Counted from the stretch's first letter, positions 3,116 to 25,060 are shown. The stretch: DNA of 64,000 bases from Felixounavirus LF110P1 (OZ035744.1); one strand, 5' to 3'. Program-made: numbers and translations. The notes: generated by a model from the letters alone, not told the origin.

Positions 3116-3615
3116 TGGCTGAAGTTATCTCTATTTCAAATGCTACACGAGTGCATTCGTATAGAGGTGTTCTTATCATTACTGACAAGTTATCTGTAGA
3201 GGCTGGCTCAAGGGTCAGCCTTTCAGGTTATGTAAGTGATGGTGGAACCTCTGACGTTTTCACTATTTGCAGGTTACTTGATGCTCCAATGAGTGGAAAA
3301 CCGTTTATTTCAGGAAATTGTAGTGAAATTGTTAAAATTCCATTTGACAGTTCATGCCTTTTGGGTGTAAAGTTATATAACTGCGAGAATAAACGTATCA
3401 ATGTTAATAGCATTGAAGCCGCTTTCATTACCCTCGACACTGCATTTCAATCTCCAATGACAGTTAATAAAGAAACAAACAGACTTGAATACATTTTTTC
3501 ACAAAATGATTACAAAGTACTTGTCAAAGGCAAAGTATATGATATGATTGTAAATGTGGTAGATGAATCTGGTAACCATTCAACAGTCCTTAAACAAAAA
3601 GTAAGGTTTAATTAA
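3115..3615 (+). CDS. Hypothetical protein (head-module accessory)
   Basis: 166 aa ORF start-overlapping the portal stop (ATGA-type coupling); no recognisable motif. Confidence 0.4.
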   Translation: MAEVISISNATRVHSYRGVLIITDKLSVEAGSRVSLSGYVSDGGTSDVFTICRLLDAPMSGKPFISGNCSEIVKIPFDSSCLLGVKLYNCENKRINVNSIEAAFITLDTAFQSPMTVNKETNRLEYIFSQNDYKVLVKGKVYDMIVNVVDESGNHSTVLKQKVRFN

Positions 3616-3947
3616 TGGGAACATTAACTATTGATGGTAAGAATAAAATCCTCGCCACGCTAACCCCAACGACTATTATTTTACACAATGTAGACCCAAC
3701 GGCAGACCCTACAGCAAATAAGGTTACTCAGCCAGTGGCTATTTATTTTTCTGAACCGGATAATGGCTTAATTGCCTCAGAAGATACAGTTAATATTACT
3801 GTTCCAGCTTCTGCAACGGTCTCACACTATAGCTTGTGGGATGCTAACGATAAATGCGTGGCAACTGGTGCTCTTAGCAAACCTCAATTCTTTGCTGAAG
3901 AAGGTATCTATGTTATCTCTTCAGTCTCTGTAGATTTAAACAAATAG
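3615..3947 (+). CDS. Hypothetical protein
   Basis: 110 aa ORF, coupled to the upstream ORF; no recognisable motif. Confidence 0.4.
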   Translation: MGTLTIDGKNKILATLTPTTIILHNVDPTADPTANKVTQPVAIYFSEPDNGLIASEDTVNITVPASATVSHYSLWDANDKCVATGALSKPQFFAEEGIYVISSVSVDLNK

Positions 3948-3958
3948 GGTGAGTAAAA

Positions 3959-5305
3959 ATGAGTTCGAATATCTTCAGACTTGCTGATAGATTATTCAAC
4001 CAACCTTTACTAGCCACTGAATCATTAGCTCACTCAGCAGCAACTTATGTGAATAACAGATTGCTGGGTGATGTCCAAGCAGCAGTAAACTTTGATAAAC
4101 CCAAAGGTGAAGCAAGAAGTCTTTTAAAAGTAAAAGATGACATTGCTATTATCCCTATTATGGGTGGTTTAACCCATCGTATGACATTCATTGATGCAAT
4201 GTGTACAGGTGGATTAAGTTCTTATGAAGGTTTGCGTAGAGGCTTTGACGAAGCTTTAGCAGATGAGTCAATCAAGACTATTGTTCTGCACATCGATTCT
4301 GGTGGTGGTGAAGCTTCAGGTTGCTTTGAATTAGCACGTCACATTATGGCTTCAAGAGGCCAAAAGAAAATTATTGCTTATGTAGATGAGTTCGCTTGTT
4401 CCGCTGCATACGCTCTTGCATCTTCTGCTGAAGAAATTATTGCATCACCAGATGCAGATGTTGGTTCTATTGGTGTAATTATGGTTCATCAGGAATTAAC
4501 TAAGGCATTTGAAAAGAATGGCGTAACAATTAACGTCATCAAAGCTGGTGAGTTTAAAGGTATGGGTTCACCATTCCAAGCACTCTCAGAAGAAAGCAAA
4601 GAAAGACTTCAAAAGAGAATTAATGATACCTACGCAACCTTTACAGGTTTTGTAGCCGAATCTCGTAATCTCTCTGAAGAAGCTGTAAAGAATACTGAGG
4701 CGAATGTTTATTCTGCTCAGGAAGCTCTTGAACTTGGTTTAATTAACTCAATCATGTCTCAAGATGATTTCTTAAATTACTTACAAGGTTCTGAAGAGGC
4801 TCCTGTAAGTTTAAACGTTAACAATTCAGGTGAAGAAATGACTGAACAAGAAAAGCAAGAACTAGAAGCTTTGCGTCTTCAGGTTGCTCAAATGAAAGCT
4901 AAAGAACAGGAAGCTGCTTTGTCAGATTTGACTAATAAGATTTCTGCTTCTGCTGAAGCTTTTGGATTTGATGCAAAAGAAGCTGCAACGACTATTTTAG
5001 GTGCTGGTCTTGACAACCCTCTGAGTGTTCTGTTTATGAATGCTATGGAAGGTGCTAACCAGAAACTTAATGAAACTATCGCGTCCCATGCTTCTGCAAT
5101 GGAAGAAAAAGAATCAGAAATCACCAAGCTGAAAGAAACTGCTGGTGCTGTTCTTGAACATTCCAACGCTATGGAAGAAGTGGGTAATGACGGCGAAGCT
5201 GATTTGGTTGAAGAAGAAAAAGAACCAGCTAAGAATGCTTCCGAAGACACCGCTGAACAACGCAAACTGGCTCTCCAGAATGCTCTAAAATCTCTTATCA
5301 AATAA
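3959..5305 (+). CDS. Prohead protease (S49/SppA-like) fused to a C-terminal scaffold-like coiled-coil domain
   Basis: IDSGGGEASG and EFACSAAYALA motifs typical of S49 peptidases; C-terminal ~170 aa is Ala/Glu/Lys-rich and helical. Confidence 0.75.
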   Translation: MSSNIFRLADRLFNQPLLATESLAHSAATYVNNRLLGDVQAAVNFDKPKGEARSLLKVKDDIAIIPIMGGLTHRMTFIDAMCTGGLSSYEGLRRGFDEALADESIKTIVLHIDSGGGEASGCFELARHIMASRGQKKIIAYVDEFACSAAYALASSAEEIIASPDADVGSIGVIMVHQELTKAFEKNGVTINVIKAGEFKGMGSPFQALSEESKERLQKRINDTYATFTGFVAESRNLSEEAVKNTEANVYSAQEALELGLINSIMSQDDFLNYLQGSEEAPVSLNVNNSGEEMTEQEKQELEALRLQVAQMKAKEQEAALSDLTNKISASAEAFGFDAKEAATTILGAGLDNPLSVLFMNAMEGANQKLNETIASHASAMEEKESEITKLKETAGAVLEHSNAMEEVGNDGEADLVEEEKEPAKNASEDTAEQRKLALQNALKSLIK

Positions 5306-5316
5306 GGAACACAATA

Positions 5317-5694
5317 ATGGCATATCAAGGTTTTACTAAGTTAGGTAACAGAGAACCTCTGAATGATATCATTCTTTGGGAACAGATTACCCCAACAGGC
5401 CACTCTCGTAAAGAGTACACTCCACAGGCATCTACAGAATATCGTGTAGGCGAGGTTCTGAAAGCAGATGGTACTAAGGTTACAGCAGGGCAAGAAGCTC
5501 AGGCTGATTCGGTATGTATCGTTAATTTCTACGCAGACCTGCAACTGTCTTACCACGGTCAGTTGAAAGTTGTTGGTATCCACCGTGATGCAGAACTAAA
5601 AGACCTGCTAATTCTTGAATCAAGCGTTAATGCTGATGAAGTCAAGAAAGCTCTGGCTGCTAAAGGTATTGATTTCGTACCAACTGGCCTGTAA
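5317..5694 (+). CDS. Putative head decoration or small head protein
   Basis: 125 aa ORF between the protease/scaffold and the major capsid candidate; assignment by position only. Confidence 0.35.
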   Translation: MAYQGFTKLGNREPLNDIILWEQITPTGHSRKEYTPQASTEYRVGEVLKADGTKVTAGQEAQADSVCIVNFYADLQLSYHGQLKVVGIHRDAELKDLLILESSVNADEVKKALAAKGIDFVPTGL

Positions 5695-5727
5695 TAACAA
5701 TAATAAGACATTCTGGAGAATTTTACA

Positions 5728-6840
5728 ATGTTGACTAATTCTGAAAAAAGCAGATTTTTCCTTGCTGACCTGACTGGTGAAGTCCAGTCTATCCCAAATA
5801 CTTATGGGTATATTTCCAACTTAGGTCTGTTCCGTTCAGCACCAATCACCCAAACTACTTTCCTGATGGACTTGACTGATTGGGATGTTAGCTTGCTTGA
5901 TGCGGTAGACCGTGATAGCCGTAAAGCAGAGACTAGCGCACCTGAGCGTGTTCGTCAAATCAGCTTCCCAATGATGTACTTCAAAGAAGTTGAAAGCATT
6001 ACTCCTGATGAGATTCAGGGTGTACGTCAGCCAGGCACTGCAAATGAACTGACTACTGAAGCTGTAGTACGTGCTAAGAAGCTGATGAAGATTCGTACCA
6101 AGTTCGATATTACTCGTGAGTTCCTGTTTATGCAAGCTCTGAAGGGTAAAGTTGTTGATGCTCGTGGTACTCTGTATGCTGACCTGTACAAGCAGTTCGA
6201 CGTTGAGAAGAAGACTATTCACTTTGACCTCGACAATCCTAATGCTGACATCGACGCTTCTATTGAAGAACTGCGTATGCACATGGAAGATGAAGCTAAG
6301 ACTGGCACTGTAATCAACGGTGAAGAAATTCACGTAGTTGTTGACCGTGTATTCTTCAGCAAACTGACTAAGCATCCTAAGATTCGTGACGCTTATCTTG
6401 CACAGCAGACTCCACTGGCTTGGCAGCAGATTACTGGTTCTCTGAGAACTGGTGGTACTGACGGCGTTCAGGCTCACATGAACACTTTCTACTACGGTGG
6501 TGTTAAGTTTGTCCAGTACAACGGTAAGTTCAAAGACAAGCGTGGTAAGGTTCACACTCTGGTTAGCATTGATGGTGTTACTCAGGATGGAACTGTAGGT
6601 GTAGGACATGCTTTCCCTAACGTTTCTATGCTGGGTGAAGCAAACAACATCTTCGAAGTGGCATATGGCCCATGTCCTAAGATGGGTTACGCGAATACAC
6701 TTGGTCAGGAACTGTACGTATTCGAATACGAAAAAGACCGTGACGAAGGTATCGACTTTGAAGCTCACTCTTACATGCTGCCATACTGTACTCGTCCTCA
6801 GTTGCTGGTAGATGTTCGTTCTGACGCTAAAGGCGAATAA
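5728..6840 (+). CDS. Major capsid protein (putative)
   Basis: 370 aa ORF after protease/scaffold; codon usage rich in highly expressed codons (many GGT, CGT, CTG). Confidence 0.6.
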   Translation: MLTNSEKSRFFLADLTGEVQSIPNTYGYISNLGLFRSAPITQTTFLMDLTDWDVSLLDAVDRDSRKAETSAPERVRQISFPMMYFKEVESITPDEIQGVRQPGTANELTTEAVVRAKKLMKIRTKFDITREFLFMQALKGKVVDARGTLYADLYKQFDVEKKTIHFDLDNPNADIDASIEELRMHMEDEAKTGTVINGEEIHVVVDRVFFSKLTKHPKIRDAYLAQQTPLAWQQITGSLRTGGTDGVQAHMNTFYYGGVKFVQYNGKFKDKRGKVHTLVSIDGVTQDGTVGVGHAFPNVSMLGEANNIFEVAYGPCPKMGYANTLGQELYVFEYEKDRDEGIDFEAHSYMLPYCTRPQLLVDVRSDAKGE

Positions 6841-6861
6841 TATTCTTAAGGAGGGTTATGA

Positions 6862-7311
6862 ATGTGTTATACAGGCGACCCAGCCAATAACCCTCTTGAT
6901 AGAGTAAGAATCCTCTGCACAGACACCAATAATGATGAAATTCTTATTGAACAGTCTGTGCTAGAGTGGTTCTATCTAGAATCTGGAAAGGATGAAAAGA
7001 AAGCAGCCATCAAAGCTCTTAAATATTTACTCTTTCAAGTAGCCAAGATGGGAGATGAGAAGGTTGGTGGTGTTTATTTACGTAACTCTTCCAGATTCAA
7101 ATCTCTGAAAGCTGTTTATGACGACCTTGTTAAAAGCTCTGTTTCAGGACTACCCTATGCAGGTGGTATTAATCAGTGTGATATTGACATGCGTCGTCAG
7201 AATCCTTGCTCTGTCAAGAAATACACAGAATATGGTGATGCTGCCAGATACGAAGGCAGAGATTACTGCAACCGTGTTAATGGCGTATTTATTATCGAGC
7301 GAGATGAATAA
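6862..7311 (+). CDS. Head-tail connector/head completion protein (putative)
   Basis: Position between capsid and tail genes; 149 aa. Confidence 0.35.
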   Translation: MCYTGDPANNPLDRVRILCTDTNNDEILIEQSVLEWFYLESGKDEKKAAIKALKYLLFQVAKMGDEKVGGVYLRNSSRFKSLKAVYDDLVKSSVSGLPYAGGINQCDIDMRRQNPCSVKKYTEYGDAARYEGRDYCNRVNGVFIIERDE

Positions 7312-7793
7312 TGGTTAAAAGGGTTATTCACCCCGCGAGAGCAAAATTAGTCGGGGCTATGAAGAACTTGCAGACGGCTAATGCTCAAGTTGGGTATTTT
7401 CAAGAACAAGGTCAACATAGCTCTGGTTTTTCTTATCCTGCTTTAATGTATTTACAAGAAGTTATTGGGGTTCCTTCAGCTTCTGGTAAAGTATATCGTA
7501 GGTTGTTTGAAATCACTATGATGCTAAACAAACAGACCTTGTTAGAGCAGACTAAGAAGAATCTATATAAGCAACTTAGCAGTCTCAATACAGACCCTTC
7601 AAATACCTTAGAAGCATTTGCAAAGAATACTCAAAAGGCAATTAAAAGGGGGTTTGGTAATTCTGCTATCCTTCCTCCTAACGCACCTTCCACAGTCAAG
7701 AAAAAAGGCTTTAACGCACCTCTTGTTGAGACAGGTGACTTAAGAGATAATCTTGCTTATAAAATTTCTACTAAGAAGGGTATTAAAAAATGA
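7311..7793 (+). CDS. Head-tail joining protein (putative)
   Basis: 160 aa, start overlaps upstream stop. Confidence 0.35.
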   Translation: MVKRVIHPARAKLVGAMKNLQTANAQVGYFQEQGQHSSGFSYPALMYLQEVIGVPSASGKVYRRLFEITMMLNKQTLLEQTKKNLYKQLSSLNTDPSNTLEAFAKNTQKAIKRGFGNSAILPPNAPSTVKKKGFNAPLVETGDLRDNLAYKISTKKGIKK

Positions 7794-8191
7794 GACTCTT
7801 AAACAGACACAGCTTTGTAGTAAAGCGTAAAGTCTCTGAAGATGGTTATTATAATGATGATGGTGATTGGGTAGCTTCGCAAGATATTGTAGAGGTTAAC
7901 TGCAAAGGTAATATCCAGCCATATATCAAAGGTTCTGTAAAGAATGGTACACAGATTGCTTTACCGGAAGGTATTAGGCTTACCGATACAAGAATCCTGT
8001 ATACCACATATAAACTTAGAACTTCAGATGATGTAGAGTGGAATGAGTCTGATATTGTTATGATTGATGGTCATGAGTATGAAGTATTTATGACTATGGA
8101 TTGGTCACAGCAATTAGCCCATACGTCCCATTATGAATATATCATTATTAGAAGGGATAAAATGAATGCAGTTAGAAACAGCAGAACTTGA
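7790..8191 (+). CDS. Neck/tail completion protein (putative)
   Basis: 133 aa, 4-nt overlap with upstream ORF. Confidence 0.35.
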   Translation: MRLLNRHSFVVKRKVSEDGYYNDDGDWVASQDIVEVNCKGNIQPYIKGSVKNGTQIALPEGIRLTDTRILYTTYKLRTSDDVEWNESDIVMIDGHEYEVFMTMDWSQQLAHTSHYEYIIIRRDKMNAVRNSRT

Positions 8192-11294: not shown

Positions 11295-19313
<8,019 letters not shown>

Positions 19314-19315
19314 TA

Positions 19316-20503
19316 ATGGCAGTAGGTGAAATTCAAATTAGTGCCTTGCCTCAAGCAGCCTTACCAATTGACCTTAGTGATATCTTCCATCTTAAGCAGG
19401 GTATTGAGGATAAGAGATGTACTCTTGAGCAATTACTTGCTCCACACTCAAGCCTAAGAAATAACCCTCATGGTGTGACTAAAACACAAATTGGTTTAGA
19501 TAACGTTATTAATGCTCTTCAGTTAGTTGCTGCAAATAACTTATCAGATATTGTTAATGTAGCTGAGGCAAGAGCAAATCTACAGATTATGTCTTCAGAA
19601 GAGGTTAATAACCTTGTTCAACAGCATATTCAGGACAAGAGCAACCCACACAATACAACTAAGGCACAGGTAGGATTGAGTAATGTTCAAAACTGGACAA
19701 CATCTAACCTTTATAATGAAGATGCAGATAAGTATGCTACAGCAAGAGCAGTAAATAACTTGTACAAGGCTGTTCAGGCTTCTTATCCAGTAGGTACTAT
19801 CCATCTTTCCATGAACTCTGCAAACCCTTCTACATATTTAATTTGTGGAGGAACTTGGGAGTTAGTTTCAAAAGGTAGGGCATTGGTTGGTTATGACTCT
19901 GACACAAGACCAGCAGGTTCTGTATTTGGTGCTTCAACTGTTACTTTGTCAGTTAATAACATGCCTCAACATTCACACTCCGTGTCTCTTAGTGGTGGTG
20001 GTCACACTCATAATGCAACTGTGTCAATTTCAGCTTTTGATTATGGAACTAAGACTACCAATTCTTTTGACTATGGAACAAAGACTACTAACACAACTGG
20101 TAACCATAACCATATTGGTAGTGGGTCAACAAGTTCTGCTGGTGCTCATAACCACAGATTGACATATGAAGCAGGCGGTGGCCTATCGGAAAGACCTGCA
20201 ATGGTTTGGTCTACAAGAAATGACCAATCGTGGTACTCAGCAGATGCTGTCTGTGAAGTCGCTGGTGCACATACCCACTCTTTCAGTGTTACCACCAACA
20301 CAACTGGTAACCACAACCATACAGTAGGTATTGGTGCTCACAGCCACACAGTTGGTATTGGTTCGCATACACATAATGGTACTGTAACAGTTTCTTCTTC
20401 TGAACATACGCATAGCGGGAACACTAATAGTGTTGGTGGAGGACAAGCTTTCAACATTGAGCAGCCATCCTTCGTACTGTATGTATGGCAGAGAACAGCT
20501 TAA
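19316..20503 (+). CDS. Tail fibre protein with His-x-His repeats (short paralogue)
   Basis: C-terminal repeats GGHTHNATVS, TGNHNH, AGAHNH, AGAHTHSF, GAHSHTVGIGSHTHNG; conserved C-terminus ...YVWQRTA shared with the next gene. Confidence 0.7.
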   Translation: MAVGEIQISALPQAALPIDLSDIFHLKQGIEDKRCTLEQLLAPHSSLRNNPHGVTKTQIGLDNVINALQLVAANNLSDIVNVAEARANLQIMSSEEVNNLVQQHIQDKSNPHNTTKAQVGLSNVQNWTTSNLYNEDADKYATARAVNNLYKAVQASYPVGTIHLSMNSANPSTYLICGGTWELVSKGRALVGYDSDTRPAGSVFGASTVTLSVNNMPQHSHSVSLSGGGHTHNATVSISAFDYGTKTTNSFDYGTKTTNTTGNHNHIGSGSTSSAGAHNHRLTYEAGGGLSERPAMVWSTRNDQSWYSADAVCEVAGAHTHSFSVTTNTTGNHNHTVGIGAHSHTVGIGSHTHNGTVTVSSSEHTHSGNTNSVGGGQAFNIEQPSFVLYVWQRTA

Positions 20504-20513
20504 TTTCTTTACA

Positions 20514-20533
20514 GGGGCTTGATAGCCCCTTTT
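20514..20533 (+). terminator. Terminator-like hairpin between the tail fibre genes
   Basis: GGGGCT tgata GCCCC followed by TTTT. Confidence 0.4.
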
Positions 20534-20549
20534 AAGAGGAAAATTTATA

Positions 20550-22931
20550 ATGGCAGATTACAAGTTGAGTGAATTAAACTCAATCGATACAATCCGTTCA
20601 GATGACCTTCTTCACGTCAGGGTTAAAAAGAGACCTGAAATGCTTGGTGATGAAGACCGTCGAATGACCTATCAAGACTTCTTAGCATCTTTTAAACTTG
20701 AAAGGTTTGTTCAGATTGCTGGTAGTACTATGACAGGTGATTTAGGGATTGTTAAGTTACTTTATGGTGGTAAGGTAGTCTTTAACCCAACAGGCTCTTC
20801 TGAGGTTACTATTGGGGATGTTTTAAAGACTTTTAAAATCAACGCAAATGGCCTTAAACTGACTATTGCAGATGCTTCAAGGTCGGCAACTGTTTATCAT
20901 ACTCTGAATAAACCAAGCCCTAATGAACTTGGGATGAGAACTAATGAAGAGAATGATGCAAGATATGCAAGGTTGGCTGTAACAAATAACTTCAACATTA
21001 GGCAAGCAATTGTAACTGATGGTGAGCAGTTAACCCTTAAGAAAGCAACTAATGCAGGAGCTTCATATATTCAGGGTAGAGATGCTAATAACCAGCAAAC
21101 GTGGTATGTTGGACAGGGAAATGCAAACAACACTAATGTTTATCTGTACAATCATGCCACTGGCTCAATGTTAACCCTTGACGCAACAGCGTCATTTAAC
21201 AAGACACTAAGAGTCATGGGTCAAGTCCAACCTTCTGACTTCTCTAACTTAGATGCTAGATACTTTACTCAGACAGTAGCTAATCAGAGGTTTGCACAGT
21301 TAGCTGCGAATAATACTTTTAGCGGTGCAAACACATTTAGTAACTATATCAGTGTGAAATCTAATGCTGCTGCTATCGTGCTAAAAAATAAAGCTGTTAA
21401 TGAATCTTTGTTCATCCTAGCAAAAGACACCGAAGATAATAACCTGTGGTATATTGGTAAAGGTGACGCAAATGACAATATCACATTTTACGATTACAAA
21501 GGTAACACTTCTATTGTCTTAAACTCGTCTGGTGCTGCATTCAACAAGCCTGTAAAAATCACTGGTCAAGTTCAACCTTCCGATTGGACTAATATTGACT
21601 CTAGATACATTCCAGCAGCTACTTTGAATAATCTTGCTAAGATTAATGTTGGTAATACATTCACATTCCAGCAAATTATCCAAGCAAATGGTGAAGCTAT
21701 TAGACTAAAAAACTCTTCTGAGAACTCACCGTTGTATATTAGAGGTCAGGACAGCACTGGTGCTAATAGATGGTATGTAGGTAATGGTTCAGGGAATGAT
21801 AATGTTATCATCCACAACTATAAGACAGGCTGTGAAGTGAATCTGTCTAGTGTTGCTGCTATTAATAAAACACTAAGAATCACTGGTCAAGTTCAACCTT
21901 CTGATTGGGCTAACTTGGATGCTAGATACTTTGTTAAGACTCAGTTATTAAATCAATCCTTAATGACTGTATCTGTCGATAACCTTGAAAACCCTTCAGC
22001 ATTTAATCTTGGCTACTCAGGTTTTGTAAGAAATAATAGTGTTACTAGTGGCTTGAAAGAGTTGGCAATTCATGTTGCTCACTCTAGTAAGTCTGCTGCA
22101 CACGCAAGGGGTATCTCTTTTGTATACGGTTCAAACGGTTTGGCAGCATTCACCTATGCCTATGACAAAAATGGTGACTATGCCGGAGAGGCACAGCTTT
22201 ACACAACTGATTTTAAACCAACCCCTTCAGATATCGGTGCATACACTAAAGCTGAGACTGACCAGAAGATTGCACAGGCAGTAAGTGACTCTACAGACCT
22301 TAATAAAATCTATCCAGTAGGTATTGTGACATGGTTTAACAGCAATGTTGACCCTAATACAGCACTTCCTGGTCTAACTTGGACTTACCTGAACAATGGT
22401 GTTGGTAGAACTATCAGAATTGCAGCAGCAAACGGTTCAGATGTTGCTACAACAGGTGGTTCAGATTCTGTGACGTTAGCTGTTGGTAACTTACCATCGC
22501 ACACCCATAGTTTCTCTGCTACCACTTCATCTTTTGATTATGGTACGAAGGGAACTAACAGTACTGGTGGTCATGCTCACTCTGTAAGTGGTACAACAAG
22601 TGCTGCTGGTAACCACGCTCACCACTTAGGTTTGTTATTAGTTAATGGTGGTGATGCTTTGTACGGTTATACAACAGTTGGTAACAATAAGACAAGGACT
22701 CTTGACTGGCTTGACAGAACTGATAACAAGTTCCCTAACACTAACACAACTGGTAACCATACACACACATGGTCTGGTACTACAAGCAACACTGGTGCTC
22801 ACACCCACTCTGTAGGTATCGGTGCTCACACTCATACAGTTAGTGGTAACACTGGTGGTACAGGTTCTGGTTCAGCATTTAGTGTTACTAACCAGTTCTA
22901 CAAGTTAATGGCTTGGGTAAGAACTGCTTAA
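20550..22931 (+). CDS. Tail fibre protein with three internal repeat modules and a His-x-His tip (long paralogue)
   Basis: Three copies of the G-Q-V-Q-P-S-D-(F/W)-x-N-(L/I)-D-(A/S)-R-Y-(F/I) module; C-terminal [41 protein letters not shown] repeats; ends ...AWVRTA. Confidence 0.7.
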
Positions 22932-23010: not shown

Positions 23011-23205
23011 ATGCCTACAATCCTAGCAATTCTTCTAAAAAATCTAGGTAGCTTCTTCTGGAAACTCATTTTATCCCTTCTAAGTGAATACATGATTGAG
23101 AAAGTGTTCTTTAAGCTTGCAAGATACCTTGCGAGTAAAACAGACACACCTATTGATGATGAGTTCGTAGATAACTTAGAAAAAGCTTTTAAGGGGGAGA
23201 AATAA
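23011..23205 (+). CDS. Small hydrophobic protein
   Basis: 64 aa, hydrophobic N-terminal half; no recognisable motif. Confidence 0.3.
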   Translation: MPTILAILLKNLGSFFWKLILSLLSEYMIEKVFFKLARYLASKTDTPIDDEFVDNLEKAFKGEK

Positions 23206-23577
23206 ATGAAGTGGCTAGAGGAAGCTTTTAAAAATAATATTGGTGCAATTGTAATTGGTATTTTTAGTGTTATTGGGATGTATACCACTATGCAAGTTTC
23301 AAGTGGTAAACAAGAAGTGTCTGTCACAACAAAGTTACAGCAGCTAGATAATTATTCCAAAAGTAACTATTCAGCTATTCGTGATTTACAGTCTGACATG
23401 AGACTGATTCAGCTAGGGATGGAGAACCAGAAAGTTCAGTTAGAGAATGTTAAGGGTGAAAACGCAAAACTTACCAAAACTCTTGATAAATTCTCTGACA
23501 GTGTGAATAATCTGGCTCAATCAGTATCAGCCCTCCAAGCTATTACTGAAAAGAACACAAAGAATACTGAAAAATAA
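23206..23577 (+). CDS. Membrane-anchored coiled-coil protein (holin-like or assembly factor, uncertain)
   Basis: N-terminal hydrophobic segment IGAIVIGIFSVIGMY followed by heptad-like helical sequence. Confidence 0.3.
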   Translation: MKWLEEAFKNNIGAIVIGIFSVIGMYTTMQVSSGKQEVSVTTKLQQLDNYSKSNYSAIRDLQSDMRLIQLGMENQKVQLENVKGENAKLTKTLDKFSDSVNNLAQSVSALQAITEKNTKNTEK

Positions 23578-23583
23578 AGTTTA

Positions 23584-23610
23584 AGGCTCCTTTTTACGGG
23601 AGCCTTTTTT
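23584..23610. terminator. Bidirectional rho-independent terminator between convergent late (+) and replication (-) blocks
   Basis: AGGCTCC tttttacg GGAGCCT followed by TTTTTT; flanked by the 3' ends of convergent genes. Confidence 0.65.
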
Positions 23611-23613
23611 GTT

Positions 23614-24513
23614 TTACTTACCTACTGACAGAGGTGCTTCAATCTTCCCTGCATGTTGGTAGTTGTTAATGCCACCAATAAAATCACTTGCAGTGAGATG
23701 TTTTAGGTCACTTAAAGTGTTAAGTGGGATACCAATCTCAAAAGTTGGTGCATGGAACTCTTCATTGTTCATCAGTTCATAAACCTGCTTCATATGGTTC
23801 TGATAAATCTGAGTATCTCCAAAGACACCTATCAAATATCGTGGAGTGTATCCAGTCATCTTACAAAGGACTTCCAGAATAAAACCATAAGATGCAATGT
23901 TAAACGGAAGCCCTAAAAAGGTGTCTACAGAACGCTGATACCATTGTAAGTCAACTTCACCCTCGTTGGTGATATAAATCTGAAACAGAACATGACAAGG
24001 TGCTAAAGCCATTGAGTTTGCTGCAATATCTGCTGCATTCCAAGCGTTAACAAGCATGTAACGGTCTGTGATATCACCCTTCATCTTCGCTACTAAGGTC
24101 TCTAACTGGTCTACAACACAACCATCATGACCCTCAAAGTTTCTCCACTGAACCCCGTAGATTCTACCACCTGCATCCTCTAACCAGTCTTGTTCAGAGG
24201 AATAATTAGAGCTTAACCAGCGTTTAAAATCATCTGACCAGATAGTCCAGCGTTCCCCATCATTTTCACCCCAAGTACGGTAACGAAGTTCACCAAGTTT
24301 ATTCTCACCATTCAGGAACCATAAAGCTTCCCCAATAACTTGCCGTGTAAACACCTGTTTAGATGTTAAGAGTGGGAAACCAGTTCGCATATCAAAACGA
24401 AACTGTGGTGGAGCAAATGCAGAGATAACATCTCCAGTTCGTGTAGTACGCAGTTCACCAACGGATAAAACATGGTTCAGGATATTTTTGTAACTCAAAT
24501 CAGCTTGTGACAT
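23614..24513 (-). CDS. thyA: Thymidylate synthase (ThyA-type)
   Basis: Active-site motif MALAPCHVLFQIY plus DLQWYQRSVDTFLGLPFNIASY, characteristic of ThyA. Confidence 0.9.
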   Translation of the reverse strand: MSQADLSYKNILNHVLSVGELRTTRTGDVISAFAPPQFRFDMRTGFPLLTSKQVFTRQVIGEALWFLNGENKLGELRYRTWGENDGERWTIWSDDFKRWLSSNYSSEQDWLEDAGGRIYGVQWRNFEGHDGCVVDQLETLVAKMKGDITDRYMLVNAWNAADIAANSMALAPCHVLFQIYITNEGEVDLQWYQRSVDTFLGLPFNIASYGFILEVLCKMTGYTPRYLIGVFGDTQIYQNHMKQVYELMNNEEFHAPTFEIGIPLNTLSDLKHLTASDFIGGINNYQHAGKIEAPLSVGK

Positions 24514-24514
24514 A

Positions 24515-25060
24515 TCAAAAGTGTCCTTTTACTTGTGGAACATAAATTTCAAAGGTTGCTTTACCATCATCCGATGGCCTTGACTGTACCTTTGCAAATA
24601 CACGGCTATCATACAGCTTCTCAAAGAAGTTTTCAAAAGGTAAATGCACAGTGGCCTCTTCAGTAACTTTATGGAAGACTGTATGGAACACCACACCAGC
24701 ATACGGTAAAGCATTGACAAGGACACCTGCACCACCAATTACAAAGACATCTTCATCAATAGAGCTATCAAGATACTTCAAAAATGCTCCAAATGACTCT
24801 TTACTGGCTTTAGCATACATTACATCATCTTTGCCAAAGTCTATGCCTAAGTATGGTACAGAATTTGTTAAGATTAGGTTTGCACGTTCTGGTAGAGGTT
24901 TACTACCCAGAGTCTTAAAAGTCTCATTACCCATCACTACTAAGTTATTTTTAGTGAGTCTCTTAAACTCTTGCATGTCCTGTTTATGTCGAGGCCACGG
25001 CATACCAGTTGGAGTACCAAACTCACCATTTTCACCACTTGCAAAGATTAATTTAATCAT
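24515..25060 (-). CDS. folA: Dihydrofolate reductase
   Basis: N-terminal MIKLIFASGENGEFG...MPW and VVMGNETFKTLG...PLPERANLILT pattern typical of DHFR; adjacent to thymidylate synthase. Confidence 0.8.
   Translation of the reverse strand: MIKLIFASGENGEFGTPTGMPWPRHKQDMQEFKRLTKNNLVVMGNETFKTLGSKPLPERANLILTNSVPYLGIDFGKDDVMYAKASKESFGAFLKYLDSSIDEDVFVIGGAGVLVNALPYAGVVFHTVFHKVTEEATVHLPFENFFEKLYDSRVFAKVQSRPSDDGKATFEIYVPQVKGHF

Follow-up and report, generated by a model that had tools for sequence, protein, structure and literature searches.

Two side tail fibre genes of Felixounavirus LF110P1 with T4 gp37-like tips, variable heads and apparently exchangeable shaft cassettes

Introduction

How does a Felix O1-like phage recognise its host with two side tail fibres, and how can that recognition change? 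The question is raised by a pair of adjacent fibre genes in Felixounavirus LF110P1 (OZ035744.1), studied here in a window of 64,000 nucleotides, which is the whole stretch of DNA that was analysed. The short (STF) and long (LTF) side tail fibre genes set which bacteria the phage attaches to. Felixounaviruses serve as tools for Salmonella diagnostics and for the biocontrol of E. coli and Salmonella. A preliminary description of this DNA saw in the pair two paralogous fibres with metal-binding-like tips, a recombination-prone receptor-binding module and, perhaps, dual receptor specificity.

The basic finding has already been published, by sequence comparison in 2015 (PMC4690856) and by cryo-EM in 2025 (PMC12609058). 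The additions made here are modest refinements, namely a cassette map, a transfer between slots 1 and 3 of the LTF shaft, the sharing of heads between STF and LTF, and needle repeat numbers that co-vary on two strands.

Gene order and taxonomic placement

The two side tail fibre ORFs, of 395 and 793 aa, are both encoded on the + strand. The genes and their immediate neighbours are as follows.

19011..19313, + strand: 100-aa ORF 5' of the fibre genes; family of unknown function phrog_4141 (E 5e-62); syntenic in relatives
19316..20503, + strand: STF gene, 395 aa; phrog_2097 tail fibre (E 4e-138); orthologue of Bas63 gp26, Sf14 gp52 and VpaE1 gp74
20550..22931, + strand: LTF gene, 793 aa; phrog_4277 (1256 bits); orthologue of Bas63 gp27, Sf14 gp53 and VpaE1 gp75
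23011-23205 and 23206-23577: two ORFs 3' of the LTF gene; match no chaperone family

The region reads baseplate J (489 aa), wedge (285 aa), 100-aa ORF, STF, LTF, two small ORFs and convergent thyA. This order was identical in the annotated loci of KhF2, FO1a, mio, CL1 and Sf17, and it agrees with the order that marks Felixounavirus (baseplate J, wedge, platform, STF, LTF, small membrane ORFs, thyA). A megablast search matched 239 phage records, Felixounavirus nearly throughout. The closest STF was that of Felixounavirus NRG857CP1 (99.0% identity), with 31 phage records at 95-99%, and identity to NRG857CP1, KhF2, LF110P4 and ECP2307 was 97.7-99.0%. For the LTF, public data listed an entry (P0001) of equal length at 100% identity and 100% query coverage, titled 'Phage tail fibers [Escherichia coli]' and located on contigs of up to 87 kb. 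Identity of the LTF to recognised genus members was 74-83% overall, and 95-100% in the N-terminus and collar. We consider it very likely, as part of the overall interpretation given here, that the locus encodes both side tail fibres, short and long, of a Felix O1-like myophage (Felixounavirus) infecting E. coli.

The 100-aa ORF fits, in position and order, the 'LTF platform' gp25 of Bas63 (PMC12609058), and is a putative counterpart of it. A scan for promoters and terminators within both fibre genes gave nothing exceeding shuffle expectation; the one standout of the scan was a bidirectional terminator at 23583-23606. T4 gp37 requires the chaperones gp38 and gp57A. No homologue of either was found adjoining the STF and LTF genes, in the two ORFs at 23011-23205 and 23206-23577, and the authors of the Sf14 study likewise report no fibre chaperone (PMC11821841).

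Domain organisation of the short fibre

Downstream of its N-terminal part, the STF was divided into a collar, a needle with a predicted ascending and descending strand, and a head.

19736..19960, + strand: collar, aa ~141-215; Pfam PF21939 Gp10_C (E 1.5e-18), T4 gp10/gp12/gp37 collar fold family
19961..20155, + strand: needle, ascending strand, aa 216-280; HxH at aa 219, 230, 264 and 278; two His-free decapeptide units
20156..20263, + strand: head, aa 281-316; hypervariable, between two HxH arrays; presumed receptor-contact loop
20264..20503, + strand: needle, descending strand, then C-terminal strand; HxH at aa 319, 333, 342, 351 and 364

Among PDB sequences, the collar matched T4 gp10 (2FKK and 5HX2) as well as the collar of the gp37 tip 2XGF. 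The C-terminus (...FVLYVWQRTA) would be the strand going back to the collar, and its motif is kept across the Ounavirinae. The head was 100% identical in four close relatives and 6-17% identical in every other relative compared. It aligns with the T4 tip residues that bind LPS and OmpC (PMC6957217).

An AlphaFold2 monomer of the whole STF, built on a 64-sequence alignment, had a mean pLDDT of 65.5 and a pTM of 0.26, with the head below 50. The collar was modelled best (pLDDT 76-90), and long beta-hairpin strands were placed at aa 222-272 and 321-369. A Foldseek search of this model against the PDB returned no match at E <= 0.001, and only weak ones to the gp10 collar and to pore-toxin hairpins. 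Because the modelled single chain would in nature be part of an obligate intertwined trimer, the result says nothing for or against the needle.

Domain organisation of the long fibre

The LTF ends in a comparable tip, preceded by a modular shaft.

20550..20954, + strand: N-terminal region, aa 1-135; 95-97% identity across Felixounavirus relatives
20955..21269, + strand: module 1, aa 136-240; variable body (slot 1) and conserved linker
21282..21614, + strand: module 2, aa 245-355; variable body (slot 2) and linker
21636..21935, + strand: module 3, aa 363-462; variable body (slot 3) and linker
21936..22229, + strand: variable region 4, aa 463-560; no module copy; weak gp37_C match (PF12604, E 0.003, below the family cutoff)
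22230..22484, + strand: collar, aa 561-645; homologous to the STF collar; weak Gp10_C match; 95-100% conserved in Felixounavirus
22485..22931, + strand: gp37-type needle and head; ascending HxH at aa 651, 675 and 689; head aa 693-735; descending HxH at aa 737, 751 and 760

The N-terminal region presumably attaches to the baseplate, a role taken from the published orthologue (PMC12609058). As the preliminary description had proposed, the longer fibre contains three tandem modules with a GQVQPSD core: the motif GQVQPSD(F/W)xN(L/I)D(A/S)RY was present at aa 224, 339 and 446, a purpose-built module HMM found exactly three copies (E 1e-43 to 1e-46, pairwise identity 33-47%), and Pfam PF20744 gp37_trimer covered three stretches (E 2.2e-60, 201 bits vs a cutoff of 21.7). 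The existence of more than three such repeats was considered and rejected, as the module HMM, run with its filters off (--max), gave three copies and no fourth. Module 2 also matched, weakly, the T7 gp17 fibre domain (4A0T/4A0U). By homology, the three ~110-aa modules would form beta-helical shaft domains of the gp37_trimer/gp34-rod type.

Both tips are related to the T4 gp37 tip

A phmmer search against PDB sequences matched the T4 gp37 tip 2XGF to STF aa 146-367 (E 4.8e-26) and to LTF aa 646-772 (E 8e-21). In these alignments, the iron-binding HxH motifs of T4 were paired with HxH in 7/7 cases for the STF and 6/7 for the LTF; the T4 motifs AHSH, GGHTH and GEHSH, for example, align to STF aa 230, 264 and 278. 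The two STF motifs beyond the seven of T4 lie at the collar end (aa 219 and 364). In the STF four HxH motifs precede and five follow a hypervariable segment, and in the LTF three precede and three follow it, the segment being 36-43 aa long. The likeness to the HxH tip of the T4 long tail fibre, first noted from the motifs, is thus true homology. By sequence comparison, both tips are homologues of the T4 gp37 tip, each with a collar followed by two HxH-rich stretches that flank a variable head. The two fibres had been called paralogous, which holds for the C-terminal tips (35% identity over 233 aa, E 2e-21) but not beyond them, the rest being without detectable homology.

The T4 tip contains seven irons, and neither its histidines nor its tip residues are dispensable (PMC6957217). 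From this homology and the published cryo-EM of an orthologue, each LF110P1 fibre would be a homotrimer, in which every chain goes out along the needle, builds the head and comes back, giving a six-stranded needle. One HxH from each of the three chains would place six histidines around one metal ion on the trimer axis (Fe2+ in T4), which predicts nine metal sites for the STF and six for the LTF. The head would touch the receptor, by homology probably the LPS core. In the published maps of Bas63, the fibre densities were too weak for rotamer modelling (PMC12609058).

Apparent cassette exchange in shaft and heads

Comparison of relatives gave a conservation profile in which the head and the module bodies were variable and the collar, the linkers and both termini were conserved, and nucleotide identity changed in sharp transitions at the linkers. 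The conserved GQVQPSD..RY linkers and the flanks coding for HxH contained the breakpoints, and the heads and the LTF module bodies varied as discrete cassettes. Since the breakpoints sit at these joints, host recognition appears to evolve by homologous recombination there. The earlier suggestion of a recombination-prone receptor-binding module is borne out by this comparison of relatives.

Individual bodies of the LF110P1 LTF had near-identical counterparts in different phages. The slot-1 body was 100% identical in P54 and LF110P2 and below 60% in 209/242 records, and the slot-1 module was 97.6% identical to that of VpaE1. The slot-2 body was matched at 98.8% in NBEco005 and at 97.5% in REP5-7. 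For the slot-3 body the best matches (88% identity) lay at the slot-1 position, in LF82P2, LF82P5, KhF2 and ECP2307. Variable region 4 was 99% identical in ECP2307 and about 20% identical in Salmonella phages. Among 132 LTFs, 42 slot architectures were distinguished and adjacent slots showed all four allele combinations, the module typing having drawn on the 120 database hits nearest to the LF110P1 LTF, with biased cassette frequencies. One LTF cassette type was found in both slot 1 and slot 3, and slot-1 and slot-3 bodies from different proteins reached 96% identity.

The heads behaved similarly. The LTF head was 91-95% identical in close relatives and 2-21% in other relatives. Four head types were common to the STF and LTF families, and within a phage the identity between STF and LTF heads was 95% in FO1a (Felix O1), 77% in mio and 26% in LF110P1. 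FO1a and RPN213 had STF heads that were 90% identical and LTF heads that were unrelated. Recombination thus seems, from these patterns, to cover exchange between LTF slots 1 and 3 as well as exchange between the STF and LTF genes. Because heads move between the fibres, a Felixounavirus may carry the same head twice, as in FO1a, or two unrelated heads, as in LF110P1.

We lean slightly towards a more general view, in which the LTF shaft would vary not by gradual mutation but because a restricted repertoire of discrete cassettes of ancient origin is swapped at conserved linkers, with out-of-register transfer between slots 1 and 3 included. On the same view, heads would cross between STF and LTF and be shared with T4-type gp37, and needle length would change only by paired gain or loss of one ascending D-x-G-T-K unit and one descending HxH nonamer.

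One receptor or two

The preliminary description raised the possibility of dual receptor specificity. In LF110P1 the two heads are unrelated (46 vs 53 residues with the flanking HxH included, 26% identity), which makes it most likely that each fibre set recognises a surface structure of its own, and dual specificity is plausible for this phage. Possession of two fibres does not in itself imply two receptors, as the two heads of FO1a are almost identical.

The fibres might instead act in sequence on one host and not widen its range, the LTF as a reversible sensor and the STF as a later irreversible anchor, like the long and short fibres of T4; the apparent dual specificity would then be a two-step receptor pathway. 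We regard this as possible, though rather doubtful. It would suit the presence of both fibre sets, about 630 A and 430 A long, on the virions of Bas63 and Sf14 (PMC12609058, PMC11821841), and the LF110P1-type STF and LTF head alleles always co-occurred in the sampled loci (KhF2, NRG857CP1, LF110P4 and ECP2307), which could reflect co-adaptation to one host. However, the STF has the gp37-type tip of the LTF and not the tip of a T4 gp12-type short fibre, and the near-same head on both fibres of FO1a and mio suits redundancy better than two steps.

Redundancy proper, with both fibres binding one receptor (the LPS core) and no dual specificity, is unlikely in LF110P1. Dependence on the LPS core is generally reported for Felixounaviruses (PMC8594841; PMC4690856), and the FO1a heads fit such a reading, but it sits poorly with two heads that differ in both sequence and length, and with the independent reassortment of STF and LTF heads in some lineages (FO1a/RPN213).

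Needle repeat units and HxH arrays

The ascending strand of the STF needle contains a short tandem repeat.

20036..20095, + strand: two 30-nt units, encoding FDYGTKTTNS and FDYGTKTTNT; needle repeat unit common to T4 gp37

The units are adjacent (20036-20065 and 20066-20095) and identical at 24/30 nt. They had been described as a 27-nt tandem duplication. The pattern given, 26 nt long, is indeed present at 20036-20061 and again at 20066-20091, with a period of 30 nt and not 27. Tandem Repeats Finder, run over the region, did not report the FDYGTK pair, and picked out at 20305-20362 a genuine 27-nt repeat that codes for GxHxHTVGI nonamers. The ascending strand of the LTF needle has one FDYGTK unit.

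The idea that the tandem unit signals a recent duplication did not survive closer comparison. Identical codons were found at 5/9 synonymous positions vs 4.4 expected from codon usage, and T4 gp37 and most Felixounavirus STFs carry the same doublet; as codon identity is not above expectation and T4 shares the doublet, the pair is better seen as an old needle repeat. The number of units ranged from 0 to 4 among Ounavirinae STFs, and in 203/223 sequences the number of descending HxH nonamers equalled that of ascending units plus one. Since the two counts track each other, any change must match on both strands and is therefore rare. It is very improbable, for these reasons, that the pair is a recent slippage or duplication hotspot actively altering needle length in LF110P1, even though the units are adjacent and alike and their number varies within the subfamily.

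The HxH motifs themselves number nine in the STF and six in the LTF, counts that were reached by 0/20,000 residue shuffles, which upholds the original observation of dense arrays at both fibre ends; 8/9 and 5/6 of them, respectively, fit the pattern (G/A/S)xH(T/S/N/A)H. The nearly identical last residues noted for the two fibres (VWQRTA and AWVRTA) are present as well. In 64 STF orthologues, down to 39% identity, H230, H232, H351 and H353 were invariant, and H219, H221, H278, H280, H319 and H321 were at least 90% conserved. Although the region is compositionally biased and BLAST scores are composition-adjusted, the notion that the clusters are an artefact of His/Gly/Thr-rich low-complexity sequence with no structural role is effectively refuted, and has next to no chance of being right, given the shuffles, the one-to-one pairing with the metal-binding motifs of a solved structure and this conservation.

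Implications

Host-range engineering benefits from knowing which segments can be swapped. In these fibres they comprise the three cassettes of the shaft, the rungs of the needle and the head enclosed by the HxH arrays. The cassette map could guide the design of chimeras, and could account for the shaft variability left open by the Bas63 study. Should the shaft cassettes make contact with host glycans as well, several features of the cell surface would be sensed by the fibre at the same time.

Comparison with known systems

Homology to the T4 gp37 adhesin was first noted for both fibres of a Felix O1-like phage in vB_EcoM-VpaE1 (gp74 and gp75; PMC4690856, 2015), where the middle of gp75 was also found to be highly variable (PMC4690856). 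The gp75 tip of that phage is T4-like (54% identity to T4; PMC4690856), whereas the heads of LF110P1 are unlike the T4 head.

Escherichia phage JohannRWettstein (Bas63) belongs to the same genus as LF110P1, and its wedge proteins of 489 and 285 aa match in length the baseplate genes upstream of the LF110P1 fibres; the likeness was drawn from the published description of Bas63. Cryo-EM of its STF (gp26) and LTF (gp27) showed a collar, an HxH needle and a head (PMC12609058, Sci Adv 2025). The Bas63 LTF has six HxH motifs and an extra adjacent His, with a counterpart in the HAHH at aa 689-692 of the LF110P1 LTF, in which a His adjoins an HxH. The reported number of HxH motifs in the STF is seven in Bas63 and nine in LF110P1. 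Five beta-helix domains were described in the Bas63 LTF (PMC12609058), whereas three are detectable as sequence repeats in LF110P1; the other two would not be sequence repeats of the LTF modules. Variable tips and variable beta-helix repeats were reported for Bas63 as well (PMC12609058). Its authors called the module variability unexpected and attributed it to mutation tolerance, host recognition or escape from defence, and recombination is unmentioned in the paper (0 occurrences; PMC12609058).

Shigella phage Sf14, of a different genus (Mooglevirus), has fibres of 391 and 792 aa (gp52 and gp53) in the same gene order (PMC11821841, Commun Biol 2025). Its longer fibre has a gp37-like tip, and different receptors were hypothesised for the two fibres (PMC11821841). 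Compared with Sf17, a Mooglevirus relative of Sf14, identity was 69% for the STF and 49% for the LTF, with no more than four HxH motifs in the LTF of Sf17.

With T4 gp37 itself, the LF110P1 fibres share a homologous collar and needle, the D-x-G-T-K doublet, a variable head at the presumed point of chain reversal and a similar hydrophobic-R-x-A ending (...NYIVRLA in T4). They differ in having heads unrelated to that of T4, no adjacent gp38 or gp57A homologue, and nine and six predicted needle sites vs seven in T4. The setting differs too: the LF110P1 fibres are single proteins placed directly on a simple Mu/P2-like baseplate, whereas T4 gp37 forms the distal quarter of a four-protein fibre.

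Locus and neighbouring genes

The window is part of the genome of a Felix O1-like myophage. By megablast, positions 19316-22931 matched 239 phage records, nearly all of them Escherichia, Salmonella or Shigella Felixounavirus, and the best matches showed 92-95% identity across 76-93% of the query. This region consists of exactly two plus-strand ORFs, for a short (STF) and a long (LTF) tail fibre, in the following setting:

16682-18151, baseplate-J wedge protein (489 aa), upstream of the fibres
18154-19011, second wedge protein (285 aa), upstream of the fibres
19011-19313, ORF of 100 aa, upstream of the STF
19316-20503, plus strand, STF gene (395 aa)
20550-22931, plus strand, LTF gene (793 aa)
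23011-23205, first small ORF 3' of the LTF (64 aa; phrog_402, unknown function)
23206-23577, second small ORF 3' of the LTF (123 aa; phrog_4038, unknown function)
23614-24513, minus strand, thymidylate synthase (thyA), convergent with the fibre genes
24515-25060, minus strand, dihydrofolate reductase (DHFR), convergent with the fibre genes

The gene order was matched in KhF2, FO1a (Felix O1), RPN213, E9, mio, CL1, Sf17 and Mijalis, in all of which both ORFs carry a tail fibre annotation. The nearest STF was that of Felixounavirus NRG857CP1 (99.0% identical), with 31 phage records at 95-99%. An LTF protein listed as 100% identical over its full length (P0001, "Phage tail fibers [Escherichia coli]") is already public, on contigs of up to 87 kb.

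No likeness to a fibre chaperone was found in either small ORF (23011-23205 or 23206-23577). The product of 23206-23577 had weak, sub-threshold Pfam matches to coiled-coil families, and its counterpart is annotated as 'holin' in several relatives. At 23583-23606, where the GC skew also switches sign, lies a perfect hairpin with T-runs beside it on each strand. It resembles a bidirectional terminator, which would separate the late structural operon from the convergent thyA and DHFR genes.

Some annotations of the relatives were unusual. In the KhF2 locus (KT184314.1), two features look like spurious pattern matches: a 'cos site' of 10 nt within the LTF coding sequence (4365-4374) and a 'P22 C1-binding site' within a baseplate gene (1168-1181). 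The E9 LTF (PP886229.1, 4654-7272) has an annotated start that overlaps the STF and lies 69 nt upstream of the conserved MADYKLS start at 4723, and this start codon is probably misannotated.

Fibre tips

Both fibres were described in the preliminary description as paralogous proteins ending in HxH arrays like that of the T4 long tail fibre. The arrays were confirmed, with nine HxH motifs in the STF (aa 219, 230, 264 and 278 ascending; 319, 333, 342, 351 and 364 descending) and six in the LTF (aa 651, 675 and 689 ascending; 737, 751 and 760 descending), counts that were reached in none of 20,000 shuffles. The STF ends in FVLYVWQRTA and the LTF in ten residues that are not shown here. The resemblance to T4 also held, as the gp37 tip (2XGF) was the top phmmer match among PDB sequences for both the STF (E 4.8e-26) and the LTF (E 8e-21). 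Paralogy was detectable for the C-terminal tips only (35% identity over 233 aa, E 2e-21), whereas the rest of the two proteins had no detectable homology.

All seven T4 HxH motifs were paired with HxH in the STF, which has two more at the collar end (aa 219, ascending; aa 364, descending). Six of the seven were paired in the LTF, which lacks a D-x-G-T-K unit as well as a descending HxH and so has a shorter needle. The segment preceding the needle matched the collar family of gp10, gp12 and gp37, through Pfam Gp10_C (E 1.5e-18) and PDB 2FKK and 5HX2. Seven iron atoms sit in the T4 needle, each bound by histidines of its three chains, and binding to LPS and OmpC requires both these histidines and tip residues 933-958 (PMC6957217). 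By homology, we infer a trimeric architecture for both fibres and predict nine metal sites in the STF and six in the LTF. An AlphaFold2 monomer model had a pLDDT of 65.5 and no significant fold match; a poor monomer model is expected for an intertwined trimer and is uninformative about the needle.

Needle length

A 27-nt tandem duplication had been proposed in the STF. Near-identical adjacent units do exist, at 20036-20065 and 20066-20095 (24 of 30 nt identical), but their period is 30 nt. They encode FDYGTKTTNS and FDYGTKTTNT, and T4 gp37 carries a matching doublet. Identical codons were used at five of nine synonymous pairs, against 4.4 expected from codon usage, and the DNA similarity is therefore explained by protein conservation; there was no sign of a recent duplication.

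The number of ascending units was 0, 1, 2, 3 or 4 across Ounavirinae STFs, and that of HxH motifs 6-11. In 203 of 223 sequences there was one more descending HxH nonamer, counted at a spacing of exactly nine residues, than there were ascending D-x-G-T-K units; the set takes in T4 and LTFs and, given kinship, amounts to about five independent classes. Needle length thus appears, from these sequences, to change by matched gain or loss on both strands. In the window the co-varying elements lie at 20036-20095 and 20305-20385, and the relatives compared include CL1, Mijalis and the Kolesnikvirus phages Fifi318 and ST-3. The latter two keep an STF with six HxH and no FDYGTK units, and at least three separate fibre genes (4662-8065), one annotated 'proximal tail fiber subunit', stand where the other phages have a single LTF.

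Cassette exchange

The three tandem modules of about 100 aa proposed for the LTF were recovered in three ways: by the consensus GQVQPSD(F/W)xN(L/I)D(A/S)RY at aa 224, 339 and 446, by three Pfam gp37_trimer matches (PF20744, E 2.2e-60), and by an HMM built from 209 distinct homologue modules, which found exactly three copies (aa 136-240, 245-355 and 363-462). These share 33-47% identity among themselves.

In alignments of relatives (14 STFs and 11 LTFs), the N-termini, collars, linkers and C-termini were conserved. The heads (STF aa 281-316, LTF aa 693-735) and the LTF bodies (aa 141-225, 261-340, 363-445 and 463-560, the last following module 3) were hypervariable, nucleotide identity dropped abruptly at the linkers, and the nearest relative varied by LTF segment.

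Nearest relatives of LTF segments
Slot 1: P54, LF110P2 (100% identity)
Slot 2: NBEco005 (98.8%)
Region 4: ECP2307 (99%)
Head: ECP2307 / NRG857CP1 (95%)

Segment identities were gapped or strongly skewed to low values; for slot 1, 33 records were at ≥80%, 209 at <60% and none in between. Typing of 132 LTFs at four slots, in a sample based on the 120 database matches nearest to the window LTF and hence biased in its frequencies, gave 38 cassette types in 42 architectures, and all four allele combinations occurred between adjacent slots. These comparisons support a recombination-prone module, as had been suggested. Cassette exchange of this general kind has long been known for phage tail fibres.

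The slot-3 body (21636-21884) was closest, at 88%, to slot-1 bodies of LF82P2, LF82P5, KhF2 and ECP2307; the matching KhF2 body lies at about aa 140-222 of its LTF. In the same biased sample, 46 of the 132 LTFs carried this cassette type in slot 1 and 31 carried it in slot 3, and the best cross-slot pair reached 96% identity. This sharing points to out-of-register exchange via the conserved linkers.

Identity between STF and LTF heads was 95% in FO1a (81.5% over 271 nt; genes at 3501-4667 and 4718-7057), 77% in mio and 26% in the window phage. At least four head types were common to the STF and LTF families, one of them T4 gp37-like (database proteins P0136 and P0137 versus P0102 and P0113). 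These comparisons indicate that head cassettes cross between the two genes.

Receptor specificity

Cryo-EM of Bas63 and Sf14 found both fibres on the virion, with lengths of about 430 Å and 630 Å, folded along the sheath (PMC12609058, PMC11821841), and felixounaviruses have been reported to depend on the LPS core (PMC8594841, PMC4690856). The dual specificity raised in the preliminary description is the likeliest reading for the window phage, because its STF and LTF heads are unrelated in sequence. The near-identical heads of FO1a show that a second fibre is not in itself a sign of a second receptor. The pair may serve for different hosts, for successive steps on a single host, or redundantly for related epitopes of the LPS.

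Comparison with published fibres

The two-fibre feature is real and ordinary for the genus Felixounavirus, and both its initial observation and interpretation are correct and already published. Both VpaE1 fibre proteins were reported to be homologous to the T4 gp37 adhesin, with a highly variable middle in the long fibre (Simoliunas et al. 2015, PMC4690856), and different receptors were proposed for the two Sf14 fibres (PMC11821841). For Bas63, a collar, HxH needle and head were described in both fibres, di-histidine motifs were counted, and variable tips and variable beta-helix repeats were noted; the word 'recombination' does not occur, and three other explanations are offered for the module variability (PMC12609058). 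The evidence for cassettes and their transfer between slots is a small addition to these descriptions.
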